Translations under genes and position numbers: made by a program | In this document: positions 1,808 through 63,641 of the stretch, piece after piece | How positions within the stretch are numbered: position 1 is the stretch's first letter | Layout: each line of letters opens with the position of its first letter | Notes under the pieces: generated by a model | Told to the model about the DNA's origin: nothing | Databases searched by the model: none | The model's input: only the letters and a program-made list of their open reading frames with translations | IMG/VR virus record: IMGVR_UViG_2576861478_000002 | DNA from: a virus | Taxonomy: Duplodnaviria > Heunggongvirae > Uroviricota > Caudoviricetes | DNA length: 64,000 nt | Strand: one strand, 5' to 3'

Positions 1808-4237
1808 TTGTTATCTACAGCAGCGAATTATACAGAAGCAATTAACAACATAATGCCTGGAGCGAAAATTATTAAGCTTACTGGATATGCAAAGGGCAAT
1901 CAAGAGTATCAAAAAGCAAAAACACCAGTAGGTTCTTGGAAAGTCACGCATTCATTAGATAACGATCAAATTAATGGATGGCTTGGTCAAGGTGGCTGGA
2001 TAGGGTGTGTTGTTCCAAAAGGTATTTTCATTGTCGACATTGACGATTCTAAAGAAGGTCAGTTACTAAGAGAATTACTTGAAGGAGAAAACATTCATCA
2101 CCATTTAATTAAAACTCCTAATGGCTGGCAGTTTATATTCAAAGGCGAAACGGATTTAACGAAAAAAGAAGGTCAGTATCAGAATTACGTTAATCGTTTA
2201 GGGTTAACACAAGATACACGAGCAGTGGAAAAGGGTTATATCGTATTCCCGACCGAAAATACAGAAGGGCGTCATGTTGTAACTCAAAGTCTAGAAAAAT
2301 TGGACGAGCTTCCACAGTTCTTATATAAAGCATGGAATGGTGCGAAAACACCTTCACCTATGAGTTATCCATATGAAACTAACGGTTCACGTGATGGGGA
2401 TTTTTATGATTTAGCCAGAAGGTTATTAATTTGTAAGGTGAGCAAAAAGGAAGTATTGTCCAGTCTTAAATTGGCTCACAAATACTTTGTTTCCTTCAAA
2501 AAAGGGTTTCTTATTAAGGATATTACAAAGGTTGTTAATTCGGCCTATAAGAAGGTCAATGAAGGAAAAGCGGATGAGGGAATAACAAACGATAATGAGA
2601 AAAAACAAGAGGATTCTATCATTCCTGTAAATATTCCATCTCCTTACAAAGTTAAAAATAATGCTTTATATAGAGTGGAAACTAAGGTCAAGAATGGAGA
2701 ACTTGATGAACGGGAAATCATGGTTGCTAGGCATGTTCCGATTCTAAAAAGAGAACTACATAACGTTGAACGTCAACAATTATATTATGAGTTAACCTGG
2801 AATGATAGAGGGAAGGTCGTCACCGAGATTGTTCCAGCTGGAGCATTGGTCACTAAGAGGGAGATGATGCCATTAGCAGATAAAGGGTTTCCTTCAAATG
2901 ATAATAACATAAAGCAGTTAATAGATTACTTTGATAAGGTTTTAGCGTTTACCGAGATTGATAGAGGGCTGATGGTAGACCGTTTAGGTTATGTGAAAAG
3001 TGGTTTGGCCCATCCATTACTAGCAACAGATTATGAAATACTGCCTAATGATCAAGGAGAGCAGCAACTTTTTGAATCATTCCAAGTAGCTGGGACAGTC
3101 CAAGGGTGGATAGATGAAGTATTTAATCGTATTAAAGCCCATCCGAGAGCATTATTTTTTGTATTAGCATCCTTTGCTAGTGTACTGCTTCATGATTTAA
3201 AAATAGATCCTTTCATTGTGGATCTTTCTAGCGGAACTTCAAAAGGAAAAACAAGCGTATTAAAAGTTGCAGCCAGCGTGTGGGGGACAAGTGAACTTGT
3301 AAATGAATTTAACGCAACCAAAGTTAGTATTGAACGTAAAGCATCCTTCTTAAACAGTTTTCCTTTGTTAATGGATGATAGCCGTAAAGCGGATGAAAGA
3401 TTACTTCAATCCATTGTTTATAACTTCAGTGGAGGGAAGTCTAAAGGTAGGGGTTCTCTTAGTGGTTCGCAAAGAGAAAATACATGGAAAAATATCATGT
3501 TAACTACTGGAGAAGTAAGTCTAAATGAATATGCATCTAAAGCTGGGGGAGCTGCTGCTCGAATTGTGAGTTTAAATGATAGCCCATTTGAAGGAGTAGA
3601 TTATATATTCTTCGCTGATTTATATAAGGGGCTAGAAACAAATTATGGAGTAATTGGTTTAGAGTTTTTAAAACAGTACCAAGTACGTAAGAAGGAGTTG
3701 CTCCCATCTTTTTATAAATTTAAAGATTTTTATATGAATAAAGCACAGGGAAATGAGGTTTTAACAAGATTATCCCTTTATTATGCAACAGTCCATTATG
3801 CAGGTAGACTCCTAAAAGAATTTTTCAAGGTTAGTGTAGATCTTGAGCAACTGGACAAGCTTTTTGACGAAATTGCCCAAGAAAATAAAGCAATAGATAA
3901 ACCAAAAGAACTATTGAATGAAATTTTAACTTACTTGGATAGTAATAGGGATGGTATTTATTATGACTATGCTCCCAAAAATATCAAAGCAATTTATAAG
4001 TTTAGTTCAATTTGTTTAACACCATCTTTTTTAAAAGAGTTCTTAGGACCAGAAGAAAAAAGGACTAGAAAAGAGTGGTTGAAAAGGGGATTTACTGTTC
4101 CTAATGTTTTAGATGGGAAAGCAGTTGATTATCAAAAAATTAGCCATAAAGGGCGAAAAATCAATGCTGTAACTATAAATAAAGAGATTGTCCAACAATT
4201 AGGTTTTGATTTTGAAGAAAATCCACCTAATAACTAA
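1808..4237 (+). CDS. bifunctional primase-polymerase (prim-pol) N-domain + DUF927/D5-like NTPase replication protein
   Basis: Prim-pol catalytic block (GWIGCVVPKGIFIVDIDD). C-terminal P-loop-like SSGTSKGKTS plus a Walker-B-like LLMDDS. Start is probably the TTG at 1808 after GGGAGGTG (the ORF track gives 1775). Confidence 0.75.
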   Translation: MLSTAANYTEAINNIMPGAKIIKLTGYAKGNQEYQKAKTPVGSWKVTHSLDNDQINGWLGQGGWIGCVVPKGIFIVDIDDSKEGQLLRELLEGENIHHHLIKTPNGWQFIFKGETDLTKKEGQYQNYVNRLGLTQDTRAVEKGYIVFPTENTEGRHVVTQSLEKLDELPQFLYKAWNGAKTPSPMSYPYETNGSRDGDFYDLARRLLICKVSKKEVLSSLKLAHKYFVSFKKGFLIKDITKVVNSAYKKVNEGKADEGITNDNEKKQEDSIIPVNIPSPYKVKNNALYRVETKVKNGELDEREIMVARHVPILKRELHNVERQQLYYELTWNDRGKVVTEIVPAGALVTKREMMPLADKGFPSNDNNIKQLIDYFDKVLAFTEIDRGLMVDRLGYVKSGLAHPLLATDYEILPNDQGEQQLFESFQVAGTVQGWIDEVFNRIKAHPRALFFVLASFASVLLHDLKIDPFIVDLSSGTSKGKTSVLKVAASVWGTSELVNEFNATKVSIERKASFLNSFPLLMDDSRKADERLLQSIVYNFSGGKSKGRGSLSGSQRENTWKNIMLTTGEVSLNEYASKAGGAAARIVSLNDSPFEGVDYIFFADLYKGLETNYGVIGLEFLKQYQVRKKELLPSFYKFKDFYMNKAQGNEVLTRLSLYYATVHYAGRLLKEFFKVSVDLEQLDKLFDEIAQENKAIDKPKELLNEILTYLDSNRDGIYYDYAPKNIKAIYKFSSICLTPSFLKEFLGPEEKRTRKEWLKRGFTVPNVLDGKAVDYQKISHKGRKINAVTINKEIVQQLGFDFEENPPNN

Positions 4238-4560
4238 GGGGTACCAAGAGTACTAAGAAAATAAAGTTCATTTTATAGATTTGGTACTCCTAAAAACATT
4301 GATATAGCAAGTATTCAATACGAATAGTACTAAAAGTACCAAGAGTACTAAGAAAATAAATATATATTTTATAGAAAAAACTATTCATAACTTTTTTCTA
4401 TAAAACCCATATATATGTACTTTGAAAAAACGTGGTACTTTTGGAACTTTAAGAACTGAAGTGGAGAATATGTTGATATGACAATGTTTTTGCGGAAGTA
4501 CTAAATAAGAAATGCGCTGGAACTGTCTAGAACTCTTGGTACTAATCAAATGAATAAGGA
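4238..4560. repeat. iteron cluster; candidate replication origin of the island
   Basis: A 24 bp unit TACCAAGAGTACTAAGAAAATAAA repeated directly at ~4240 and ~4338. An inverted copy GAACTCTTGGTAC at 4538..4551. Further GTAC-core half sites. Located immediately 3' of the primase gene. Confidence 0.45.
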
Positions 4561-4796
4561 TGGTAGAAATGGCAATTAAAAAAATTCCAACCGTACTAGC
4601 AATTGAACGTGATAAAAAAGGAAATCTTAGTACATGGTGTCAATACTGTGGAAAGTTTCATCATCATGGAATAGGTGAAGGACATAGAGATGCACATTGT
4701 TTTGAGGAAGATAGTCCTTATATTCGTACAGGCTATATCCTTAAAAAGATGAAATTATCGGGTAAAGAGGTTGTGAGGATGGGGGAAACCTCATGA
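4560..4796 (+). CDS. small Cys/His-rich hypothetical protein
   Basis: CxxC ... HHH ... H ... C pattern; RBS present. Confidence 0.4.
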   Translation: MVEMAIKKIPTVLAIERDKKGNLSTWCQYCGKFHHHGIGEGHRDAHCFEEDSPYIRTGYILKKMKLSGKEVVRMGETS

Positions 4797-24681: not shown

Positions 24682-25095
24682 GTGAGCCAACCCTTGTTTG
24701 AATGGTTTAAAGATTATAAAAAGTTGGAAGATGAAATCATTTATTTAGAAAATAAATTGCATAGAAGTAAAAGAGAATTAATACGTTGGAGTGTTGGTGA
24801 TTTATCAAAGTATAAGTTAACTGCGGATTCAGATGGTGCGAAAATAGAGGAACACATATCGGCTATAGAATATGAACTAGCGAATAAGATGAACGATCAG
24901 TACGACCTCAAAATATTAATTAGTAAGTTTGAAGGGCTAGAAAATAAAATTCTATTTGGTAAGTATGTGCAACGAAAAACGTTAGAATCTATAGCTAGGG
25001 AATTAGGCTATAGTAGTAGTTATGTATATCAGAAGCATGCTGAAATTTCTAGAAGGATAAAGCTCGCTGAGGAACTTACACTTTTCTTACAGTAA
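24682..25095 (+). CDS. ArpU-family / sigma-region-4-like late transcription regulator
   Basis: Size ~137 aa. C-terminal HTH TLESIARELGYSSSYVYQKHAEISRRI. Position before the packaging genes. Confidence 0.55.
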   Translation: MSQPLFEWFKDYKKLEDEIIYLENKLHRSKRELIRWSVGDLSKYKLTADSDGAKIEEHISAIEYELANKMNDQYDLKILISKFEGLENKILFGKYVQRKTLESIARELGYSSSYVYQKHAEISRRIKLAEELTLFLQ

Positions 25096-25350
25096 GTTTT
25101 ACATATGGTATCTATTGAAAAAATGAATTATAGTAATAGCATAGAATTTTACGTAAGAGCGACTGGTGCATGGTTGCTCTTTTCTATTTTTAATAGTAAC
25201 TGTAAAATTTGAATGGGTTGGTTACCGAATAAAGCTTTATGGATGTCTGTTTGAATGAACTGGCGTTTATAGGGCGAGTAAATAATTACAAAGAGAACTT
25301 TCGAATCTAATTGTGATTATGCAGGAATACAAAAATAATTAAACGGTCCA

Positions 25351-25421
25351 TAAGGAGAGCTTTTGCTCTTCTTTGAGCTGATACGTGCCTATCTATAGTG
25401 TCGGTTCAAAGAAGAATAAAA
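25351..25421 (+). other. conserved hairpin/mini-ORF element, copy A (also at 60119..60236)
   Basis: Identical 29-mer TAAGGAGAGCTTTTGCTCTTCTTTGAGCT and 12-mer AGAAGAATAAAA in both prophages. The arms are complementary around a variable loop. The RBS-like GGAGAG is followed by a TTG mini-ORF MLFFEL... Confidence 0.3.
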
Positions 25422-25454
25422 AAATGAATATGAGTAACAAATAGCTTATATAAA

Positions 25455-25490
25455 AAAAGAGGACGCTTATATGGCGTCCTTTATGGTGTA
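25455..25490 (-). terminator. terminator for hicAB (bidirectional hairpin AGGACGC..GCGTCCT)
   Basis: Perfect 7 bp stem flanked by A and T runs. Confidence 0.5.
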
Positions 25491-25906
25491 TTCTTTTTTT
25501 CTTTATATCCTAAATGCTTTTCTAATGCTTCTACAAGCATTTCAGAGAAATTGACATTTTGATTTGCTGCATGTTCTTCCAACCAAGAAGGAAGAGTAAC
25601 ATTTTTTCTTTTGTAAACTGTACTATCTTTTTTTCTAAGTGGTGGCATCCAAACATCGATTAAAATAGAGTATTCATTTGACTCTAATTTTGGTTTTAAC
25701 CATTTTATTGACATTGGCTCTGGAAGTGTATCATTATCTTTCTCCATTTCAGATAAATGGAGTCCTAATGCTTCTCTAGCTTCTTTTAAAGCATCTTCTT
25801 GTGTATCGGCAAAAGATGTACAACCAGGGAGATCAGGAAAGTAAATACCAAAGCCATCAGAAGATTGTTCTAAGACAGCTGGATAAATATAATAGTCTTT
25901 TTTCAT
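25481..25906 (-). CDS. hicB: HicB-family antitoxin (RNase-H-like fold + C-terminal RHH)
   Basis: YPAVLEQSSDGFGIYFPDLPGCTSFADTQEDALKEAREAL signature. Sits downstream of hicA. Confidence 0.85.
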   Translation of the reverse strand: MKKDYYIYPAVLEQSSDGFGIYFPDLPGCTSFADTQEDALKEAREALGLHLSEMEKDNDTLPEPMSIKWLKPKLESNEYSILIDVWMPPLRKKDSTVYKRKNVTLPSWLEEHAANQNVNFSEMLVEALEKHLGYKEKKNTP

Positions 25907-25957
25907 AATTTGTTTTTATAACGATTTCTTGTATAATTAGGGAAAGCAAGGGGCGGT

Positions 25958-26140
25958 TTATAACCAACCCGCTTGCTTATAGATTGAGCGAAGTGTACCT
26001 TTTGGAATATCCTTGCACGGATGTTTCACGGTTACTTTGCCAATCTTAGAAGGATGTTTGAACTGATGGTGGCTGCCTTCAATGTTCACTATAAACCATC
26101 CTTCTTTTTTTAACCTCTTAATTACTTCCCTACTTGAAAT
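25958..26140 (-). CDS. hicA: HicA-family mRNA interferase toxin (no canonical start; apparent ATT start)
   Basis: Minus-strand translation gives (I)SSREVIKRLKKEGWFIVNIEGSHHQFKHPSKIGKVTVKHPCKDIPKGTLRSIYKQAGWL. AAGGAGG RBS is 8 nt before the ATT. Not in the ORF track. Confidence 0.65.
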   Translation of the reverse strand: MSSREVIKRLKKEGWFIVNIEGSHHQFKHPSKIGKVTVKHPCKDIPKGTLRSIYKQAGWL

Positions 26141-26258: not shown

Positions 26259-26285
26259 TGAGCACCCGATTTGGGTGCTTTTTAT
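26259..26285 (+). terminator. rho-independent terminator before the late operon
   Basis: GCACCCGATTTGGGTGC followed by TTTTT. Confidence 0.5.
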
Positions 26286-26317
26286 TATGTAAAAATTACA
26301 TAGGTGGTGTTTAGCAA

Positions 26318-26555: not shown

Positions 26556-26858
26556 ATGGCTAAAGAATTTGCAAAGAAGTTTTATAAATCAACGGCATGG
26601 AAGAAATGTAGAAAGTCATATATAGCCTCAACATTAGATGGTATGTGTGAGCATTGCAAAGAAGTACCTGGATATATCGTTGACCATATAGTGGAGATTA
26701 CACCAGTAAATATAAACAATCCGGATATCATATTGAACCATGAGAACTTACAATACTTATGCTTAAAATGTCATAACACTAAGACATTTAGTAAGTACAG
26801 TCCGATGAGGGAAGATGTAATGTTTAATGAGAACGGTGAATTAATTAGGAGGGATTAG
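26556..26858 (+). CDS. HNH endonuclease (terminase-associated)
   Basis: Paralog of 8335..8625; CEHCKE...HNHENLQYLCLKCHN. Confidence 0.85.
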   Translation: MAKEFAKKFYKSTAWKKCRKSYIASTLDGMCEHCKEVPGYIVDHIVEITPVNINNPDIILNHENLQYLCLKCHNTKTFSKYSPMREDVMFNENGELIRRD

Positions 26859-27348: not shown

Positions 27349-27711
27349 ATGAGCGATAATTTAGATATAGAAAAAGAAAAAAGAATTAAGCGAGAGATGA
27401 CACGATTAAACAGTTTATTAAAGAATTTAGAGCCTAAGAAAAAGAGAGCAGTTTCTTCACTCATAAAAAACGCTGCTTTTATGGCTGTCACTTTAGAAGA
27501 TCTGCAAGAAGATATTAATCAGAATGGTGTTACTGAACAATACCAAAACGGAGCAAATCAATTTGGAGTTAAAAAATCTTCAGCTGTTGAAGTATACAAC
27601 ACAATGATAAAAAATCATGTACAGGTAATGAAACAACTAACTGACTTGCTCCCGAAAGAACAGCCTAAAGAAGAGGATGATGGGTTTGAAGACTTCGTGA
27701 ATAGAAAATGA
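27349..27711 (+). CDS. terminase small subunit (P27 family)
   Basis: Family pattern; position before terL. Confidence 0.75.
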   Translation: MSDNLDIEKEKRIKREMTRLNSLLKNLEPKKKRAVSSLIKNAAFMAVTLEDLQEDINQNGVTEQYQNGANQFGVKKSSAVEVYNTMIKNHVQVMKQLTDLLPKEQPKEEDDGFEDFVNRK

Positions 27712-29408
27712 GTAAGCAAGTAAAAAAACAGTATCCGTTAACTTATAATCCAATCATTGAGTATTACAATCAAATCGAATCTGGACAAGTAATTGTATCC
27801 AGTAAAGTTAGGCGGATATATAAAAAGCTTGTAGATGATGTGCATGATACTTCCTCTGTATTTGAGTACGATGCAAATAAAGCGAATCACGTAATAGAAT
27901 TTATTGAGAATTTTTGCAAACACTCAAAAGGAAAATGGGGAGGTAAATCGATTGAATTAGAGCTTTGGCAAAAAGCATTTTTAGCAGCTTCTTTTGGATT
28001 TGTTCATAAAATTGATGGAACGAGAAAGTATAGAGAAGTACTCTTAATTGTGGCTCGTAAAAACGGAAAGTCAACAATCGCTTCTGGAATTGGTTTGTAT
28101 TTACAAGTTGCCGATGGTGAACCAGGTGCAGAAATATATGCAGTTGCTACTAAATTAGACCAAGCAAAATTAGTTTGGTTAGATGCCAAAAGGATGGTTA
28201 AGAAATCCCCCGTATTATTAAAACGAATTAAACCGCTTGTTCGTGAATTAAATGCAGATTTTAATGATAGTACGTTTAAACCTTTGGGAAGTGATTCAGA
28301 AACACTTGATGGTCTTAATGTTCATGGAGCGATGATGGATGAAATACATGCTTGGAAAGATAAGAATCTATATGACGTTATAGTGGATGGTACTTCTTCA
28401 AGGGAACAACCAATGATATTTATGATTACAACAGCTGGAACCATTCGTGAATCAGTTTATGATATGAAATATGAAGAAGCCGAAATGCTTTTAAATGGTT
28501 TGGACGATCCAGACGGCTATAAAGACGATCGCTTTTTACCAATCATATATGAGTTGGATAAAAGAGAGGAATGGACTGATAATACTAAATGGACAAAAGC
28601 TAATCCTGGTTTAGGTACGATAAAAAAGATAGACCAACTTGAAACAAAGGTAAACAAAGCGAAAGCAAATTCTTTGCTAGTTAAGAACTTACTAACAAAA
28701 GATTTTAATATCCGCGAAACAAGTACAGAAGCCTGGTTAACATTTGAACAATTAAATAACAAGGCTACCTTTGATGTAGCAAAATTAAAGCCTTCTTATG
28801 GGATTGGCGGTTGTGATTTATCTTCAACAACTGATTTAACCGCAGCGAAGGTTATTTTTATGCTTCCAAACGATCCGCATGTCTATGTATTACAAATGTA
28901 TTGGCTTCCTGAAGATTTGCTTGAACAAAGAAGTAAAGAAGATAAGATTCCATATAATTTATGGGCAGAACAAGGAATATTGAGAACAACACCAGGTAAT
29001 TCAGTTCATTATAAATTTGTAACACAATGGTTCTTAGAAGTCAGGGATGAACTCGGTATTTATATTCCGTGGATCGGTTATGATAGATGGTCCGCAAAAT
29101 ATTGGGTGGAGGAAATGGAAGGCTACTTTGGTAAAGAAGCAATGATTCCAGTTGCCCAAGGGAAACAAACTCTTTCTAGCCCTATGAAATTATTAGGAGC
29201 AGATTTAGAGTCTAATTTAGTAAATTACAACAATAATAGCATTGATAAATGGTGCTTATCGAATACAGCCATTGATGTGGATAAAAACCTGAATATACAG
29301 CCGAACAAAACAAATAATCAACGTAGAAGGATTGACGGAACCGCAGCGCTTTTAAATGCATATGTTGTGCTTCAAGAAAAACGTAATGATTACTTAAATA
29401 TGATTTGA
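27708..29408 (+). CDS. terminase large subunit
   Basis: Paralog of 9104..10744. Confidence 0.9.
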   Translation: MSKQVKKQYPLTYNPIIEYYNQIESGQVIVSSKVRRIYKKLVDDVHDTSSVFEYDANKANHVIEFIENFCKHSKGKWGGKSIELELWQKAFLAASFGFVHKIDGTRKYREVLLIVARKNGKSTIASGIGLYLQVADGEPGAEIYAVATKLDQAKLVWLDAKRMVKKSPVLLKRIKPLVRELNADFNDSTFKPLGSDSETLDGLNVHGAMMDEIHAWKDKNLYDVIVDGTSSREQPMIFMITTAGTIRESVYDMKYEEAEMLLNGLDDPDGYKDDRFLPIIYELDKREEWTDNTKWTKANPGLGTIKKIDQLETKVNKAKANSLLVKNLLTKDFNIRETSTEAWLTFEQLNNKATFDVAKLKPSYGIGGCDLSSTTDLTAAKVIFMLPNDPHVYVLQMYWLPEDLLEQRSKEDKIPYNLWAEQGILRTTPGNSVHYKFVTQWFLEVRDELGIYIPWIGYDRWSAKYWVEEMEGYFGKEAMIPVAQGKQTLSSPMKLLGADLESNLVNYNNNSIDKWCLSNTAIDVDKNLNIQPNKTNNQRRRIDGTAALLNAYVVLQEKRNDYLNMI

Positions 29409-46506: not shown

Positions 46507-48362
46507 GTGTGCCAGGCATGGCAACTATCTAGGTGGTGGAAGTCCACTGTGGGGGTACACATCGACCAACCACTAAGGAAGCGCAAGGTACTTACCGTGA
46601 GGTTAGGGCTGGAGGAAGCGTGGAATAAAATCTTGGCTCGACGAACAGAAACCTGATATGAAGGCTTTATAAAGGGATGAGGCTCCATAACAAGTTAAAG
46701 TCCAAAAGATGTGCGTAACTTTGTAGAGTAAATCAGGCGAGTAAAAGAGGAAAGATAGTTGCCTTACCCTGGGAGATCTTGCGGATGTACTAACAGTACA
46801 GTCGAAAATGGTTAACCGCAAGAAGTCAGCCGAAGCCATAGTAGTGGAACAAATTCATGAAGGGCCGAACAGTTTATAGTGTTTCAACGCCATGAATGCG
46901 TAAGTGACATACTCCGAATATGTTAATGATGAAAGTATGAGCGTATCTCAAAGGATAATCAAAATGGAGTTGTCACTTACTACGTGAAGGGAAAGGAGAA
47001 ACGAGTGTGGAACTCTTAGAAGCAATTTTAAGCAACAAAAATATGAATGAAGCCTACTTACGCGTTTATAAAAACAAAGGTGTTAGTGGAGTTGATGGTG
47101 TAACAGTCGAAGAACTAAAGCAATATCTGAAAGAGCACAAGGACGAGCTACGTCAGCGCATTAGAACAAGGAAATACCAACCACAAGCTGCCTTAAGAGT
47201 GGAAATCCCAAAAGAGAATGGCAAGATGCGCAAGCTGGGAATACCAACAGTAGTGGATAGAGTCGTTCAACAAGCCATTCATCAAATACTCAGCCCGATA
47301 TTTGAGAAGCAGTTCAGTGAATTCAGTTATGGTTTTAGACCAAAAAGAAGTTGTGAGATGGCAATTGTTAAAAGCTTGGAATTTCTAAACAACGGATATG
47401 ATTGGATAGTAGATATTGATTTGGAGAGATTCTTTGACACAGTTCATCACGATAAATTGATGCGAATTATATCTAACTCAATACATGACGGAGACGTCAT
47501 CTCTCTCATAAGAAAGTATCTAGTCAGTGGAGTTATGGTGAATGGGAAATATGAAGAAACACCAGTCGGAACTCCGCAAGGAGGCAATCTCAGCCCTTTA
47601 CTGAGTAACATTATGTTGAACGAACTGGATAAGGAACTCGAGGGTAGAGGACTTCAATTTGTGAGATACGCTGATGACGCTCTTATCTTTGTGAGGAGTG
47701 AGAAGGCAGCGGGCAGAGTGATGAAATCAATCGTGAGATTCATAGAAAAGAAACTAGGCTTGATAGTCAATACAGAAAAGAGTAAAATCTCTCGGCCAAA
47801 AGATTTAAAATTTTTAGGGTTTGGATATTATTACACCCTCAAGGATAAGAGATATCAAACGAAACCACATCCAATCTCGGTACAAAAATTTCAAAGAAAA
47901 TTGCACCAACTGACAAAACGAAGCTGGAGTGTACCGTTAGACTATCGAATATTGAAACTTAAACAAGTGATATTTGGATGGGTCAATTACTTCAGGAGTA
48001 CAAATATGAAAGGTGTTCTGGAGCGAGTAGACCAGAAGCTCCGCTCCAGAATTAGGGTGATTATCTGGAAGCAATGGAAAGTACCGAAGAAACAAATCAA
48101 ATCGCTTGTTCAACTAGGGATTCCGGAGGAAGAAGCGAAGGGATTAACCTACTGTCGAAAGGGCTTCCGATATATAGGGTTATCGAAAGTTGTTCAAAGA
48201 GCCATCTCAAATCAAAGACTAAAGAAGAGGGGAGTCCCTTCTTCTTTAGAACGCTATCTAAAAGTTCACACTGTAATATAAACTGAACCGCCGTATACGG
48301 AACCGTATGTACGGTGGTGTGAGAGGGGCGAGAATAATTACTTTATTTTCCCTCTACTCGAT
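46507..48362 (+). mobile_element. group II intron, bacterial class C (IIC) type
   Basis: 5' GUGUG directly after a terminator. ~500 nt GC-rich domain I-III region. RT/maturase ORF in domain IV. Domain V-like ACCGCCGUAUACGGAACCGUAUGUACGGUGGU at 48286..48317. Domain VI with a bulged A ~48356. 3' end is +/-5 nt. Confidence 0.8.
47007..48281 (+). CDS. group II intron reverse transcriptase/maturase (no En domain)
   Basis: RT blocks 0-7 incl. YADD (FVRYADDALIF). X/maturase region present. Ends at domain V. Confidence 0.9.
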   Translation: MELLEAILSNKNMNEAYLRVYKNKGVSGVDGVTVEELKQYLKEHKDELRQRIRTRKYQPQAALRVEIPKENGKMRKLGIPTVVDRVVQQAIHQILSPIFEKQFSEFSYGFRPKRSCEMAIVKSLEFLNNGYDWIVDIDLERFFDTVHHDKLMRIISNSIHDGDVISLIRKYLVSGVMVNGKYEETPVGTPQGGNLSPLLSNIMLNELDKELEGRGLQFVRYADDALIFVRSEKAAGRVMKSIVRFIEKKLGLIVNTEKSKISRPKDLKFLGFGYYYTLKDKRYQTKPHPISVQKFQRKLHQLTKRSWSVPLDYRILKLKQVIFGWVNYFRSTNMKGVLERVDQKLRSRIRVIIWKQWKVPKKQIKSLVQLGIPEEEAKGLTYCRKGFRYIGLSKVVQRAISNQRLKKRGVPSSLERYLKVHTVI

Positions 48363-58799: not shown

Positions 58800-59144
58800 A
58801 TGAAGGTGTTAAAGGATCAGCTGCGTGAATGGAAAAAGCAATCGAATCAAGCAAAGAAGAAAAAGAAGAAAAAACGAAAAGAGAAATTAAGTACTCGTGA
58901 AATTGAGGATTTAATGGGGATGCATAGACCTTGCTATGAACGAAGACGTGGAGCAATAAGACAAAGAGATATTATTTATAAACGTTATTTAGAAGAAGAG
59001 GACGTATGTGATTACATGGTTTATAACGAAATAGGGATGTCAGAGCGTACTTATCGCCGTTGGAAATCTAAAGCATTTTATAAGCTTGCTTTTGCACTTG
59101 GATTAGAAGTTTATGAGACAGAAGAGACTGGAGGTAATGAATAA
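58800..59144 (+). CDS. ArpU-like late transcription regulator
   Basis: C-terminal HTH MSERTYRRWKSKAFYKLAFAL; Lys/Arg-rich linker. Confidence 0.55.
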   Translation: MKVLKDQLREWKKQSNQAKKKKKKKRKEKLSTREIEDLMGMHRPCYERRRGAIRQRDIIYKRYLEEEDVCDYMVYNEIGMSERTYRRWKSKAFYKLAFALGLEVYETEETGGNE

Positions 59145-59686
59145 TGAATTTTGTTCAGCCGATACGTGATCCAGAAGAAATACAGCAGCTAAAAGAATAT
59201 TTTAAAGAAAAGAGCTTACGTAATTACATTCTCTTCATTATGGGAATCAATACAGGCCTGAGAATCTCAGACATTTTGAAATTGAAGGTTGGAGATGTCA
59301 AAGGTAGTCATATATCTATGAGAGAAAAGAAAACAGGGAAACAGAAACGAATACAAATTACTGCAGCACTGAAAAGAGAACTTAAATGGTTTATTGAAGA
59401 AAGAGAAGATAATGAGTATTTATTACAAAGTAGACAAGGGAAGAATCGTCCTATCGGGCGTAGCATGGCATATAAGATATTAAGTGGAGCAGCGGCAGAG
59501 TTTGGATTAGATGAAATAGGAACACATACACTGAGAAAGACGTATGGGTATCATATGTACATGCAAACAAAAAACATAGCATTACTCATGGAGATATTCA
59601 ATCATTCGTCAGAGAAGGTCACGTTACGTTATATAGGCGTAAACCAAGATGCAATGGATAAAGCAATGACTAGGTTTAAAATCTAA
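59144..59686 (+). CDS. tyrosine recombinase, catalytic domain only (180 aa)
   Basis: GLRISD (R), HTLRKT (HxxR), LRYIG (Y). No N-terminal core-binding domain. ATGA-coupled to the upstream regulator. Confidence 0.75.
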   Translation: MNFVQPIRDPEEIQQLKEYFKEKSLRNYILFIMGINTGLRISDILKLKVGDVKGSHISMREKKTGKQKRIQITAALKRELKWFIEEREDNEYLLQSRQGKNRPIGRSMAYKILSGAAAEFGLDEIGTHTLRKTYGYHMYMQTKNIALLMEIFNHSSEKVTLRYIGVNQDAMDKAMTRFKI

Positions 59687-60118
59687 GCATTGCTTTTTCT
59701 TTTTAAATCTATACAGTTACTCATAAATTTCGTACTGTGTAACTCAAAAGGGAAAGTTTAATTAAGTCAATAATATCAAGGGATTTGGCGAAGGGGTCAG
59801 TTACACACAATACAAGATATGGGTAACTCATTGGAGAAAGAACAGGGGAGATAAGCGGTTGCCAAAAACCACTGATTTGGGCAAAACAGTTGCAAAGAAT
59901 AAGTGAGGATATTGATAAGAAAAAATAAGTGGCAGAGTCGTGACCGCTTTTTGGCAGGATATGTACCGGTTGTTTTGGAAATACCGTGTTATATTTGTAT
60001 TGTGAGAAGTGGCGGAAAACACAACTCACTATGTTGTTTCTAAATTTCTAAACGATTCGTAATGATGGCACATAAAATCCGAAACCAGCAGATGGTACTG
60101 ATTAAGCGATACCGTTAT

Positions 60119-60236
60119 TAAGGAGAGCTTTTGCTCTTCTTTGAGCTAACAACATCCTAGGTAGACGGAATGAGGAGACCTGATAAGTCGGACAAGAGTT
60201 TCTGTCGTGGTTGTTAGTTGAGAGAAGAATAAAACT
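60119..60236 (+). other. conserved hairpin/mini-ORF element, copy B
   Basis: Shares its 29-mer and 12-mer with 25351..25421. Long complementary arms GCTCTTCTTTGAGCTAACAAC / GTTGTTAGTTGAGAGAAGAA. Mini-ORF MLFFELTTS. Confidence 0.3.
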
Positions 60237-60322
60237 TCATTTACCGTATGCGAATTTATTGTAAATAATAACGTTCTCTATACATTTGAAATTATATATC
60301 GATAAAAGGATGTTGTGTTTAT

Positions 60323-60622
60323 TTGTCGAAATATAGAATGATGGGAAGGGGGTGTGTAAGTATGGCTAGAACATTACATACAAAAGTTATTATGGACAGT
60401 GGTAAAGAATATGACCTTGATGTTCATCCAGAAGACTTTATGAGTCGTATCTCAAATGAAAAAGGGGAATTGTATAAGGGATTTGTTCATTTTTTTAACC
60501 TTTCAATAAATCCTCTACATGTATCTTCAATTGAGACCGTAGAAGTGAAAGTTGATGGAAGTTCAGGAGTTACTGCAAAGTATGTGCTTGAACCATTTGT
60601 TACAGGGATTAAAAGAGATTAG
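60323..60622 (+). CDS. hypothetical protein
   Basis: ORF with a GGGAAGGGGG RBS. Confidence 0.4.
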   Translation: MSKYRMMGRGCVSMARTLHTKVIMDSGKEYDLDVHPEDFMSRISNEKGELYKGFVHFFNLSINPLHVSSIETVEVKVDGSSGVTAKYVLEPFVTGIKRD

Positions 60623-60763
60623 GGAATAGTTAATATCTGAACAGTCGCTATCGATATAGATAGCGGCTTTTTATTTTGGAGGAGGATGAAGGGTGGATAA
60701 ACATTACGTAGAGCGGAATCTATAGATTCTATTAAATGTCGAGCAATTAAGGAGTGAGGATAG

Positions 60764-61168
60764 ATGTGTAATGTTTCTAGATGTTGTTTAGCTTGTGACT
60801 ATCAAATTAAAACTTATCAAGCGCCAGAAGATGAATATCAAGAAGTAACTGTTTGTCCGAAATGTAATGGTGCGTTTGTAGATATGTTTAAGTTAGAGAA
60901 GTACAAACAATCTAACGAGACTGTAGAACCTTTATTAACAATTACATTAACAGATATAGATGCTAAACCTATAGTTCATTACAAAGGTAAACAGATAGAT
61001 AGAAAGTTACGTGTTGCATTTGATTGGGAATCACAATCGATTGATAGGATTAATCGGACATACATTCATATTGAACATGTACCAGCTGATAATAAGCAAT
61101 TCAATACTGAAGTTATTCAGCACAATCATCCTATTGTGGAAGACCAAGTGGAGCTTTATCGGTTATGA
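60764..61168 (+). CDS. hypothetical zinc-ribbon protein
   Basis: CCLACDY..CPKCNG. Confidence 0.4.
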   Translation: MCNVSRCCLACDYQIKTYQAPEDEYQEVTVCPKCNGAFVDMFKLEKYKQSNETVEPLLTITLTDIDAKPIVHYKGKQIDRKLRVAFDWESQSIDRINRTYIHIEHVPADNKQFNTEVIQHNHPIVEDQVELYRL

Positions 61169-61500
61169 AAGAATACAAAACCAAACAACAGAAGCGTAAG
61201 TTCTATGACAGGGGTGAGTGGAAGAGTATACGAGAGCAAGTAAAGAAGAGAGACAACTATGAGTGCCAAGAGTGTAAACGTAACGGTCGAGTACAAACAG
61301 ATACCAATGAGTACAGTGAGAGTGCAAAGCGTAAGAAGATACAGCTCGTCGTCCATCATAAAAAAGAACTAGAACATCATCCAGAACTCGCATTGGAAAT
61401 AGACAATCTTGAAACAGTCTGTGTGGATTGCCATAATAAAGAACACGGTAGAACATTCGAAAAGAAACCGAATAAATGGGAAAACGATGAAAAGTGGTAA
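61165..61500 (+). CDS. HNH endonuclease (terminase-associated)
   Basis: CQECKRNG...HHKKELEHH...CVDCHNKEH. Confidence 0.85.
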   Translation: MKEYKTKQQKRKFYDRGEWKSIREQVKKRDNYECQECKRNGRVQTDTNEYSESAKRKKIQLVVHHKKELEHHPELALEIDNLETVCVDCHNKEHGRTFEKKPNKWENDEKW

Positions 61501-61650: not shown

Positions 61651-61986
61651 GTGGCTAGAGGGAAGCGTGAAACAATGAGAAAAAGGATTGAAAAGGATCT
61701 AACAAATCAATTAAAAGAAAAAAAGATTGTAGGTAATCATTATACTGACTTAATTCAAGACTATTTATCGTTGTGGGATTTAAAGTGTGTTCTTGTTGAT
61801 GATATTGAAGAAACAGGAATAAAAGTATCTGGCATGCATGGTCCGAAATCCAATCCTTCTATTAATGATTTACATAAAACAAATGATCGAATGATAAAGA
61901 TTTTAGATGCACTTGGATTAGAAGCATCGGCAGAAGAAAAGAAAGTTCCTTCAAAACCTGTGCGCTCAGTTAAAGATTTAACATGA
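61651..61986 (+). CDS. terminase small subunit (P27 family)
   Basis: Family pattern. Confidence 0.75.
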   Translation: MARGKRETMRKRIEKDLTNQLKEKKIVGNHYTDLIQDYLSLWDLKCVLVDDIEETGIKVSGMHGPKSNPSINDLHKTNDRMIKILDALGLEASAEEKKVPSKPVRSVKDLT

Positions 61987-63641
61987 TTCAAAATAATTAT
62001 GTCACTGAATATATTGAGATGTATCGCGCAGGGAAAATTAAGCTGAATAAAGAGCGCATAATGCTAATTGAGTACCTGGAGAAATACATTTTAATACGCG
62101 ATGATTTGTATTTCGATAATGAAATGCATGAGGACTATATAAAATTCACTGAGAAATGGTACTTTGAATTGCAAGCATTTCAAAAGTTCCTAACAGCATT
62201 CGTTTTTCTTTTCTATAAAGAAGATGATTCTGTTTTTTACGAGCAATTTTTAATTATGATGGCTCGTGGTGGTGGTAAAAACGGTTTAATTTCATCATTA
62301 TGCCATTTCTTTATTAGTCCGCTGCACGGAATAGATCGATACAATGTTTCAATTGTGGCGAACAACGAGAAACAGGCCAAAGTTTCTTTTCGTGAAGTCT
62401 ATGATGCTATTAAAGGAAAAGAAATACTAGAAGATATGTTTTATCGAACCAAGGTAGAGATACTGAGTAACGATACGCAAAGCATTATTCAATATCATAC
62501 ATCTAATGCTGGTTCTAAGGATGGACTTCGTGACGGTTGTGTTATTTACGATGAAATACATCGATATGAAAACTTTGATGTAGTAAATGTATTCTCTAGT
62601 GGACTTGGAAAAGTGCCAAATGCTAGAGAATTTTTTATTGGTACAGATGGCTTTGTCCGCGATGGATTCCTGGACAAAACAAAAGAGCGGGCGATGAATA
62701 TTCTAAAGGGGAAAGATTTAGAAGATCCATTATTCCCTTTCATTTGCAAGATAGATAATCCAGAAGAAATTGATAATCCTGATGTATGGGAAAAAGCGAA
62801 TCCGATGTTTAGCGAGCCGAGAAGTTCTTATGCTAAACAATTATTTAAAAAGGTATTAACTCAATATAAACAATTAGAAAATAATCCTTCAAACCGTGAA
62901 GAATTCATAACAAAACGTATGAATTATCCTGAAACAGATTTAACAAAGTCTGTAGCTTCATGGGAAGAAATCATGCGTACTGGTTTTGAAGAAGATGGGG
63001 AAACGCTCAGAGAGGTTCCAGATTTAAAACATAAAGTAGCTGTAGGCGGACTCGACTTCGCCAGCATTAAAGACTTTGCTGCGGTTGGTCTACTCTTTAA
63101 ACATGGTGAAGATTATATATGGAAAGGTCATTCATTTGTACGTAAAGGATTTTTGGACAAGGTGAAATTAAAAGCACCTATATATGAATGGGCTGAAAAT
63201 GGCTTACTAACTATTGTGGATGAACCAGTTATTAATATCTCTCACATTGTAGATTGGTTTGTAAAAATGCGTGAGTTATACGGTGTTAATACGATTGTAG
63301 CCGATACATTCCGCCTTGATCTTGTCAAAACGGCACTTGAAGCTGAAGGATTTATATTGTTGTATATCCGTAATCCAAAGGCAATACATTCTCTTTTAGC
63401 ACCAAGAGTTGAAACGTTGTTTGCAAACAATCGCATTATTTTTGGAGATAATCCATTGATGCGTTGGTACACTAACAACGTCTACGTCCACATCAAAAAA
63501 GACGGCAACAAAGAGTATCTGAAAAAAGATGAATTTAAGCGTAAAACAGATGGATTTCAAGCTTTTATTCATGCGCTATGGCAAGCGGATAACATTCTTG
63601 TGGATGAATTCGACTTTATGCTAGATGGTATTAAATTCTAA
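61983..63641 (+). CDS. terminase large subunit
   Basis: Paralog of the other two terL genes. Confidence 0.9.
   Translation: MIQNNYVTEYIEMYRAGKIKLNKERIMLIEYLEKYILIRDDLYFDNEMHEDYIKFTEKWYFELQAFQKFLTAFVFLFYKEDDSVFYEQFLIMMARGGGKNGLISSLCHFFISPLHGIDRYNVSIVANNEKQAKVSFREVYDAIKGKEILEDMFYRTKVEILSNDTQSIIQYHTSNAGSKDGLRDGCVIYDEIHRYENFDVVNVFSSGLGKVPNAREFFIGTDGFVRDGFLDKTKERAMNILKGKDLEDPLFPFICKIDNPEEIDNPDVWEKANPMFSEPRSSYAKQLFKKVLTQYKQLENNPSNREEFITKRMNYPETDLTKSVASWEEIMRTGFEEDGETLREVPDLKHKVAVGGLDFASIKDFAAVGLLFKHGEDYIWKGHSFVRKGFLDKVKLKAPIYEWAENGLLTIVDEPVINISHIVDWFVKMRELYGVNTIVADTFRLDLVKTALEAEGFILLYIRNPKAIHSLLAPRVETLFANNRIIFGDNPLMRWYTNNVYVHIKKDGNKEYLKKDEFKRKTDGFQAFIHALWQADNILVDEFDFMLDGIKF

Follow-up and report, generated by a model that had tools for sequence, protein, structure and literature searches.

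A stretch of 64,000 nucleotides (the window) from the Caudoviricetes record IMGVR_UViG_2576861478_000002 contains two prophages, here called A and B, and in each of them one copy of a hairpin-forming sequence lies between a late regulator gene and the packaging genes: what is this element, and at which level, DNA, RNA or peptide, does it act? A first reading of the letters alone (the sequence-only reading) had noticed the hairpin together with a ribosome-binding site (RBS) and a mini-open reading frame (mini-ORF), and had proposed a leader-peptide attenuator, an antitermination target, a small RNA or a recombination site. Our analysis suggests that the two hairpins form the core of a structured leader RNA with which the late operon of temperate phages of the Bacillus cereus group opens, and that this leader would govern read-through of a terminator placed before the late genes; we put the probability of this reading at roughly 45%. 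Comparison of homologous loci establishes the element as a conserved RNA-level structure of fixed position and orientation, and the antitermination function itself is what we infer from the architecture of the locus. What had been spotted is only the core of a larger unit, which reaches about 125 nt further upstream and, downstream, to the terminator.

Even with up to three mismatches allowed, the 29-mer TAAGGAGAGCTTTTGCTCTTCTTTGAGCT has exactly two matches in the window, 25351-25379 and 60119-60147, both on the plus strand (shuffles lead one to expect none); the 12-mer AGAAGAATAAAA likewise has exactly two, at 25410-25421 and 60223-60234 (0.12 expected), which amounts to one element per prophage within 64 kb and agrees with the identical flanks first reported. 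The variable stretch between them is 75 nt long in copy B, as had been estimated, but 30 nt in copy A (25380-25409) and not 27. On the plus strand each copy forms a long hairpin, copy A at -29.5 kcal/mol (z = -4.7) and copy B at -35.8 kcal/mol (z = -2.1); the respective minus strands reach only -16.4 and -26.5 kcal/mol. The claim of complementary flanks with a compensatory extension also held, the additional stem pairs differing compensatorily between the copies (GCUGAUAC/GUGUCGGU versus GCUAACAAC/GUUGUUAGU). This identical core is not a by-product of general relatedness, since the TerL proteins of prophages A and B are only 23% identical and a comparison of their two late regulator proteins detected no similarity. 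The position had been read correctly as well, downstream of a regulator gene and upstream of packaging genes, with a small recombinase gene near copy B. The regulators had been called ArpU-like; both match phage transcription-regulator or activator PHROGs, but no ArpU family was returned for them in the Pfam scan.

The element recurs in related phages. BLAST of phage records found it in 21 phages of the Bacillus cereus group, including B13, BMBtp1, phiCM3, Athena, MY192, PfEFR-4/5, phBC6A52 and BtCS33, and exact-pattern scans of IMG/VR found it in at least 119 contigs. In phiCM3, Athena and B13, whose annotation we inspected, it occupies unannotated DNA that extends from the late regulator, which a small integrase may or may not accompany, to the HNH and terminase genes. 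It always lies 3' of the late regulator and points in the same direction as the HNH/terminase genes. A 17-mer scan of genome contigs (596 Gb) placed it in six records, three of them labelled Bacillus sp., Bacillus cereus and Paenibacillus sp. 102; nearly all of the at least 120 matches listed were due to chance, and a pattern this short, applied to 596 Gb, says little on taxonomic range.

Aligned loci have a canonical order: the late-regulator gene, direct repeats, a predicted promoter with a weak -35 and an extended -10, a 5' domain, a first segment (seg1, AAGGAGAGC), UUUU, a second segment (seg2, GCUCUUCUU), a stem-loop that we call V, a third segment (seg3, AAGAAGAAUAAAA), a fourth (seg4, CUUC), a tail of the form (A)yrUACCGUAAUU, about 25 AU-rich nt and an intrinsic terminator with the consensus AAAGCAUCCAUUCGGGUGCUUUUUAUUUU, followed, usually at once, by GGAGGAGG and the opening ORF of the late genes. 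Uninterrupted loci have 280-310 nt between predicted start and terminator, and at most loci the terminator lies 30-80 nt past the hairpin. An intrinsic terminator is predicted downstream in 123 of the 129 non-redundant loci; it begins 100-200 nt past the start of seg1 in 91 loci, and in about 54 a Shine-Dalgarno (SD) motif follows the terminator stem by 6-13 nt, which leaves no room for a separate late promoter. When loci were selected with an independent upstream anchor, the 20-mer made of seg1, loop and seg2 was exact in 96 of 119, and the hairpin was missing in two.

Evidence that the conserved object is an RNA comes from its pattern of substitutions. A covariance model trained on 30 ungapped class-1 sequences was used to search 99 sources, and it found exactly two sense matches in the window, copy B (60110-60261) at 78.8 bits and copy A at 53.7 bits; elsewhere it returned a single sense match per locus, except for a tandem pair in one locus (L028). 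Sense matches scored 54-153 bits and quasi-palindromic antisense matches 35-53 bits. The tandem locus has two hairpin modules of different stem classes about 230 nt apart (4110-4234 and 4461-4610, on the minus strand of the locus), and the flank upstream of the second module differs from the usual one (AAGAGAAAATAAGAAGAGC).

Pairing statistics were taken from an alignment (A3) of the 92 best matches, each of them a sense match. Pairing in the long hairpin reaches 96.2%, compared with 90.1% in column shuffles (none of 500 as high) and 34-57% in slid controls, with both-sided changes in 10 pairs (118 cells). The outer stem of V is 96.3% paired and 9 of its 13 pairs have changed on both sides, for example CG/UA, UA/CG, CG/AU and UA/AU/GC; all strong covariation is confined to V, whose stems fall into the classes CCAGUUACUUAAU/AUUAGGUGAUUGG, UGAGCUAACAAC/GUUGUUAGCUGA, UGAGCUGAUAC/GUGUCGGUUCA, UCAAUCGCUGAC/GUCAGCGAUUGA and CCAAUCACUG/CGGUGAUUGG, among others. 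Mismatches in V are asymmetric between the strands, with 197 G·U pairs and 11 A·C oppositions, and this large excess argues for a plus-strand RNA rather than a DNA inverted repeat. Covariation across homologous B. cereus prophages, which had been suggested as a check, is strong in V, and the initial idea of a conserved hairpin with compensatory changes, present once per prophage, is supported.

The segments on either side of V can pair in more than one way. In copy B the seg1:seg2 hairpin has 9 bp and -11.8 kcal/mol; across 91 distinct sequences this pairing is kept in 99.6% of cells, with all changes one-sided and the pair retained. Alternatively, seg2 pairs with seg3 (about 90% canonical), which lengthens V into a helix of 26-33 bp, and seg3 pairs with seg4 (90.5% paired), where GAAG/CUUC changes jointly to GAGG/CCUC. 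Constrained folds of the 92 sequences put the seg1:seg2 and seg2:seg3 states a mean of 1.1 +/- 2.5 kcal/mol apart, and in the window the two conformations differ little (-34.3 versus -35.8 kcal/mol in copy B, -26.6 versus -26.7 kcal/mol in copy A). Such nearly iso-energetic states are compatible with a bistable switch, in which the predicted conformations would interconvert, but their near-equal energies are partly built in, because two purine segments are complementary to one pyrimidine segment.

These same segments hold the putative translation start that the sequence-only reading had reported. The AAGGAGAG of seg1 is SD-like by sequence and is paired with seg2 in one conformation; the seg1 variants GGAAGAGC, GGGGAGC, AGAGAGAGC, GAGGGC and GAGU keep the pairing with seg2 and weaken the SD match, and the loop variants UUUC and UUCC abolish the UUG. 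The translations MLFFELIRAYL and MLFFELTTS had been read correctly, but not the spacing of 7 nt between RBS and start, as the UUG (25363-25365) begins 3 nt past GGAGAG and 5 nt past its GGAG core.

Upstream of the switch segments, the 5' domain comes in three types. Type B, to which prophage B belongs, is highly conserved at more than 100 loci and contains a 5' hairpin, CUAAACGG and a proposed long irregular hairpin with CCGAAACC, ACCA/UGGU and GAUUGAAUG; the 5'-terminal hairpin of copy B folds with -8.8 kcal/mol (z = -3.6). Types A (copy A of the window) and C (phage B13) have other 5' domains, yet they retain CCGAA-hairpin-G(A/U)UUGAAUGA and CUAAACGG, copy A having CCGAA-hairpin-GAUUGAAUGA and CUAAACGG in common with type B.

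Promoter and start site would lie upstream of all of this. Type-B loci share an invariant promoter core, from which a start at about 59997-60003 is predicted in prophage B; the extended -10 of the aligned loci reads TGnTATATT. A consensus scan found no canonical -35 at the late promoter of prophage B, as expected if the promoter is activator-dependent, which we presume it to be. Two TGGCAG repeats precede the promoter in 91 of 120 loci, and in 11 loci three to four GCGAACTAT repeats stand in their place. The kind of repeat co-varies with the ArpU-like protein (84% identity within a kind, 31% between kinds) and with the small integrase-like protein (92% within, 55% between); in 47 type-B loci one of the three upstream ORFs encodes the small recombinase-like protein. 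Neither the -10 region nor the leader RNA changes with the kind of repeat. Ltr/ArpU activation needs direct repeats beside the ltr gene (PMC3753634); that the repeats here swap together with the regulators fits such activators and supports a start upstream of the element. The swap of repeat kind was noted at seven of our loci (L017, L028, L037, L043, L080, L092 and L114), a modular exchange of activator specificity. We also note that the hexamer TATTGT of prophage B, preceded by TG and placed 2 nt past the extended -10, recalls sigma-dependent promoter-proximal pause elements.

Based on this layout we can present a rough proposal. The late regulator would start transcription at the activator-dependent late promoter, and the emerging leader would fold into the 5' domain, the 9-bp seg1:seg2 hairpin and the long V stem-loop. 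The purine segment seg3 could then displace seg1 and extend V into the helix of 26-33 bp. The leader would act in cis on its own polymerase, alone or with a phage or host factor (possibly a Nus factor), allowing that polymerase to pass the leader terminator and any cassettes inserted there (hicBA, for example) and so to reach the genes for packaging, morphogenesis and lysis. The late genes seem to depend on read-through because a strong terminator abuts the RBS of the first of them; in prophage A, late transcription must also traverse the opposite-strand hicBA cassette and its terminator. Among the roles first suggested for the element, a leader or antitermination target is the best supported, given a conserved late-operon RNA that is followed by a terminator, an argument from architecture.

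Several observations weigh against this proposal or narrow it. By eye, the locus alignments contain no leader segment complementary to the terminator arms, and since no leader sequence can pair with the terminator the element is not a classical attenuator. The Pfam scan of 10 neighbouring proteins returned no ConAn1-like protein (PF17362), and no N- or Q-like protein was identified. Terminator-like sites within the late operon of prophage A are not above chance (12 versus 9.3 +/- 3.8), so that a need for long-range processivity is not evident. Three loci (L130, L281 and L288) carry a type-B 5' domain fused to an intrinsic terminator, without the V hairpin or seg3/seg4 (e.g. …GCCGUUGAGUGGAAAGAGCAUCUUUAAAGAUGCUCUUUAUUUU), and either the hairpin is dispensable there or these prophages are decaying. 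The covariation statistics come from an alignment that was fitted to the model and from related sequences; as all loci come from closely related hosts, the independent evidence amounts to about 5-7 stem classes and not to 90 events. In the 5' domain, 92.7% of the proposed pairs are compatible, against 33-59% in slid controls, but column shuffles did as well in 42 of 500 cases, and for this reason its fold is put forward as a hypothesis only. Finally, permissive Rfam scans of 25250-25520 and 60000-60370 gave best E-values of 0.11-0.43, far under gathering scores, with no EAR or other family among them.

A specific RNA-binding partner of the kind that N and boxB form was sought by comparing V stem class with the neighbouring proteins; the only link, an 84-aa ORF that goes with class 1, looks lineage-like and is unconvincing. 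Literature searches on ArpU and late genes, antitermination, RNA motifs and the core sequences found no description of the element.

Could the long helix serve the fate of the late mRNA rather than its elongation? The helix of seg2:seg3 and V might be cut by RNase III or another nuclease, separating the leader from the late mRNA, whereupon the purines of seg1 or seg3 and the 5'-terminal hairpin would act as 5' stabilisers, such as are known from the early RNA of phage SP82 and from the STAB-SD element of B. thuringiensis cry3A. The extended helix of 26-33 near-perfect base pairs, with pairing but not sequence conserved in V, would suit a nuclease, and there are polypurine SD-like segments on both sides of it as well as the 5'-terminal hairpin at the predicted start. 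However, such processing explains neither the strong terminator between leader and first late gene nor the near-invariant sequences of seg1, seg2 and seg3, and the seg1 variants GGAAGAGC and GGGGAGC, whose complementarity to 16S rRNA is weakened while their pairing with seg2 is kept, may argue against an SD-type stabiliser. We consider an RNA processing or stability signal improbable.

A trans-acting RNA of about 300 nt, whose C/U-rich seg2 would pair with the RBSs of host or phage mRNAs, had also been among the early suggestions. Gram-positive small RNAs use pyrimidine-rich segments as seed, and the unit is a discrete one, with promoter-like sequence, a strong terminator and an invariant pyrimidine-rich segment, and its sequence is highly conserved across otherwise dissimilar phages. 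Against such an RNA, the unit always stands directly before the late genes and in their orientation, with an RBS often within about 10 nt of the terminator and thus late genes that lack a promoter of their own; moreover, its seed would be paired in both predicted conformations, and the insertions (morons) between hairpin and terminator in prophages A and B would drastically alter its 3' end. This makes a role in trans quite improbable.

The mutually exclusive, nearly iso-energetic helices 3' of the 5' domain also bring a riboswitch-like sensor to mind, in which the 5' domain would bind a metabolite, an ion, a tRNA or a protein, or sense temperature, and thereby set the equilibrium between seg1:seg2 and seg2:seg3 and time the late genes. 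Invariant internal-loop motifs (CCGAAAC, GAUUGAAUG and CUAAACGG) common to the three 5' domain types would be in keeping with this. Yet no expression platform is evident, because the putative switch helices overlap neither the terminator nor the RBS of a real gene, and the 5' domain itself differs greatly between types A, B and C, has a fold without covariation support and resembles nothing in Rfam, all of which renders a sensor very doubtful.

[quoted passage not shown] It does have imperfect 20-bp inverted repeats, its sequence is identical in two unrelated prophages, copy B lies about 430 bp from a recombinase gene, and in HNH phages cos sites lie between the regulator and the HNH/terminase genes. 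Against these stand the far better folding of the plus strand and the predominance of G·U over A·C, and the individual candidates fared no better. An inverted apical segment, as an invertible switch would produce, was found in none of 20 class-2 loci. Type A and C loci, including copy A of the window, have the element without a recombinase gene, and together with the lack of inversions and the strand-asymmetric mismatches this led us to reject the recombination site that had been suggested. A cos site is made unlikely by the B13 record, which continues for 1.6 kb downstream through HNH and one further ORF before it ends, so that its genome end is elsewhere, and by Athena and the window, where the element is separated from terS by other genes. 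The linear record of phiCM3 (GenBank KF296718; our loci L001/L004) breaks off within the hairpin (…GCTCTTCTTCCAGTTACTTAATATTGTTGATGCG) and resumes at the leader terminator; relative to close relatives about 83 nt are apparently missing at this junction, which is probably an artefact of assembly or linearisation rather than a genome end, and explains the record end better than cos does. Two copies in 64 kb at a fixed position, one sense match per locus in the 99 sources and no target duplications speak against a dispersed repeat of the MITE/bcr type. The chance that the element works as a DNA site thus appears slim.

The least credible reading is the leader-peptide attenuator, in which ribosomes starting at the UUG after GGAGAG would melt the hairpin: the SD-like AAGGAGAG with UUG is present in 95 of 99 loci and ORFs of 9-19 codons are common, but the UUG sits in the loop of the conserved 9-bp hairpin only 3-5 nt from the SD, is lost (UCG or CCG) in three of the 99 non-redundant loci and opens ORFs of 4 to more than 30 codons whose stop is not conserved and whose residues are conserved only where seg2 fixes them, the stem substitutions (among them the seg1 variants that weaken the SD and keep the pair) are compensatory for pairing and not synonymous, and although helices 1:2, 2:3 and 3:4 exist, the terminator is not one of them but lies 30-80 nt beyond, with no partner in the leader.

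The positions of the leader and its neighbours in both prophages are collected in Table 1.

Table 1. Features of the predicted late leaders and their surroundings in prophages A and B (positions in the window; promoters, RNA folds and terminators are predictions).
Prophage	Feature	Position	Strand	Remarks
A	Late regulator gene	24682-25095		phrog_36, sigma-like (PHROG 'transcriptional regulator/sigma factor')
A	Tail-plus-terminator module after the regulator	25128-25184	+	terminator 25155-25184 (terminator scan)
A	Extended -10 TGTAAAAT	25201-25208	+	predicted promoter; putative start at about 25215
A	Type-A 5' domain	within 25201-25351	+	aligned with 10 type-A/C loci
A	Motifs of the type-A 5' domain			ACCGAA 25224-25229; hairpin AUAAAGCUUUAU 25229-25240; GUUUGAAUGAAC 25249-25260; UAAACGGUCC 25340-25349
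A	Putative switch core	25352-25421	+	covariance model match 25342-25441, 53.7 bits
A	seg1	25352-25360	+	loop 25361-25364; seg2 25365-25373
A	V, class 3	25374-25384 and 25398-25408 (arms)	+	13-nt loop
A	seg3 AAGAAGAAUAAAA	25409-25421	+	seg4 absent
A	hicBA toxin-antitoxin cassette	25460-26089	-	hicB 25481-25906; hicA 25958-26089; terminator 25460-25480
A	Canonical leader terminator GAGCACCCGAUUUGGGUGCUUUUUAUU	26260-26286	+	-13.5 kcal/mol, z = -4.7
A	Late genes	26318 onward		HNH 26556-26858; TerL 27708-29408
B	Activator-like late regulator gene	58800-59144		phrog_248, 'transcriptional activator' PHROG
B	Tyrosine-recombinase-like gene	59144-59686	+	180 aa; Phage_integrase 1.1e-23
B	TGGCAG direct repeats	59930-59935 and 59952-59957	+	likely late-activator sites (putative binding)
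B	Late promoter core	59987-60003	+	extended -10 TGTTATATT 59987-59995; -10-like TATTGT 59998-60003
B	5' domain	60002-60119	+	5'-terminal hairpin 60002-60029; CUAAACGA motif 60048-60055; long irregular hairpin
B	Long irregular hairpin, P1			UGAUGG (60063-60068)/CCGUUA (60112-60117); CCGAAACC 60079-60086
B	Long irregular hairpin, P3			ACCAGCAGAUGGU 60084-60096; GAUUAAGCG 60100-60108, consensus GAUUGAAUG
B	seg1 AAGGAGAGC	60120-60128	+	loop UUUU 60129-60132; seg2 GCUCUUCUU 60133-60141; 1:2 hairpin
B	V, class 2	60142-60221	+	arms UGAGCUAACAAC (60142-60153) and GUUGUUAGUUGA (60210-60221)
B	seg3 GAGAAGAAUAAAA	60222-60234	+	predicted pairing partner seg2 or seg4
B	seg4 CUUC and conserved tail CUUCAUUUACCGUA	60235-60248	+	
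B	99-aa ORF	60323-60622	+	phrog_21701; between hairpin/tail and leader terminator
B	Leader terminator	60643-60677	+	-17.1 kcal/mol, z = -5.2 (terminator scan)
B	Late genes	after the terminator		further ORFs, then HNH 61165-61500 and TerL 61983-63641

In prophage A the hicBA cassette (HicB_lk_antitox, 8.9e-18, and HicA_toxin, 1.3e-15, by Pfam) sits in reverse orientation in the stretch from the hairpin to the canonical leader terminator, the latter being homologous to the terminator that lies directly 3' of the element in other loci. The cassette carries a strong promoter of its own (26200-26172; terminator and promoter scan), and late transcription would cross it in antisense. The stretch 25128-25196 on the plus strand, 3' of the regulator gene, aligns locally with the tail and terminator that other phages have 3' of the element (score 55, shuffle maximum 28); given this homology, the tail-plus-terminator module serves in two positions. 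Prophage B has about 430 nt of non-coding DNA between the small recombinase gene and the element, a structured apical domain of 56 nt in V, and the RBS GGAGGAGG of the next gene directly 3' of its terminator. By eye, its small recombinase is without a separate N-terminal domain and has kept the R, HxxR, H and Y motifs. The spacer from hairpin and tail to terminator appears to be a recurrent insertion point for morons, other loci having different inserts or a second type of terminator.

Rfam 15, run over the whole window at gathering thresholds, matched nothing but a purine riboswitch and domains of a group II intron, both elsewhere. The purine riboswitch aptamer (RF00167) lies outside the prophages at 11766-11867 (+) and is full length at 84.2 bits. 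Intron domains D1-D4 and the D5/D6 region lie at 46591-46865 and 48286-48362 (+), with scores of 128.5, 45.5 and 44.6 bits; situated in or near prophage B, they imply an intron of about 1.8 kb.

Late-gene control in Gram-positive temperate phages is explained by the protein activators RinA, Ltr and ArpU, which act at repeats of the late promoter. In a large group of phages of B. cereus, B. anthracis and B. thuringiensis, a highly conserved RNA structure supported by covariation and a strong terminator stand between the predicted late promoter and the first late gene. If this RNA does control read-through, packaging and lysis would be subject to a second, RNA-based checkpoint in addition to the Ltr/ArpU model, with a bearing on phage-mediated gene transfer and on losses to phage in B. 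thuringiensis fermentations, and the rare RNA-based antiterminators would gain a further example. In practice, this yields a candidate for Rfam, a precise marker of the late-operon start in prophage annotation and a defined spacer in which morons such as hicBA integrate.

How does this arrangement compare with known systems? The late leader of phage lambda, with its PR' promoter, 194-nt 6S RNA and tR' terminator, is overcome by Q antitermination, and Q makes use of a sigma-dependent pause. The Bacillus phages have the same order of a promoter 3' of the late-regulator gene (here a predicted one), a short leader and a strong terminator before the first late gene, with late genes that lack a promoter of their own, and in prophage B a -10-like hexamer right after the -10 (59998-60003) resembles the Q pause. 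In contrast to lambda, no Q homologue was identified, though no comparison aimed at Q proteins was made, the regulators are of the Ltr/ArpU type, described as activating initiation, and the hosts are Gram-positive. Lambda N and nut offer another partial parallel, in that a hairpin that varies between phages stands beside a short invariant pyrimidine-rich element. By eye, the sequence UGCUCUU (seg2 with the preceding U; 60132-60139 and 25364-25371) matches the E. coli rrn boxA (UGCUCUUUAACAA) over its initial 7 nt, and the UUCUUUGA that follows it in the window copies may resemble a Gram-positive boxA. However, an N-like protein was not identified, both conformations have the boxA-like segment paired, and each phage has one site.

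HK022 put and Bacillus EAR are processive antiterminators made of RNA alone, which act in cis early in long transcription units, make RNA polymerase pass over terminators further on and depend on stem-loops with conserved stem bases. The leader described here would resemble them in principle, as a structured RNA early in a long transcription unit with a putative activity in cis, but there is no likeness in sequence or structure (no Rfam match, including EAR), and it is larger, with about 250-300 nt, and has mutually exclusive helices. In Gram-positive conjugative plasmids, the ConAn1 protein (PF17362) and the conAn2 RNA form a bipartite antitermination system; conAn2 is several hundred nt long, with essential stem-loops and dispensable flanking 20-bp inverted repeats, and the operons contain embedded terminators and toxin-antitoxin genes, the latter expressed differently depending on antitermination (PMC8191782). 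By this description, the phage leader is again a large RNA placed where a very long operon begins in a mobile element of Firmicutes, with toxin-antitoxin genes embedded. It differs in heading a phage late operon and not a conjugation operon and in having no PF17362 protein among its 10 scanned neighbours, and where the inverted repeats of conAn2 are dispensable, the equivalent stem is the best conserved feature of the phage leader. That the element adds to put, EAR and conAn2 another, new class of antiterminator RNA acting in cis, one that licenses late transcription in Gram-positive temperate phages, is a tentative idea that we hold to be unlikely, if worth stating.

The Ltr, RinA and ArpU studies (PMC3753634, PMC3152322) describe the same order of regulator gene, terminator, repeats, late promoter and packaging genes, and in the Bacillus loci the repeats co-vary with the regulator. 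Those studies explain activation by protein-DNA contacts only, and the passages searched mention neither a structured leader RNA nor a leader terminator 3' of the promoter. Set beside the 6S RNA of lambda, which has no known structural role, the leader of the Bacillus phages is both conserved and structured. We regard the element as the core of a candidate new RNA family that would fall within an already known type of system, in which a phage's cis-regulatory leader RNA goes with a terminator.

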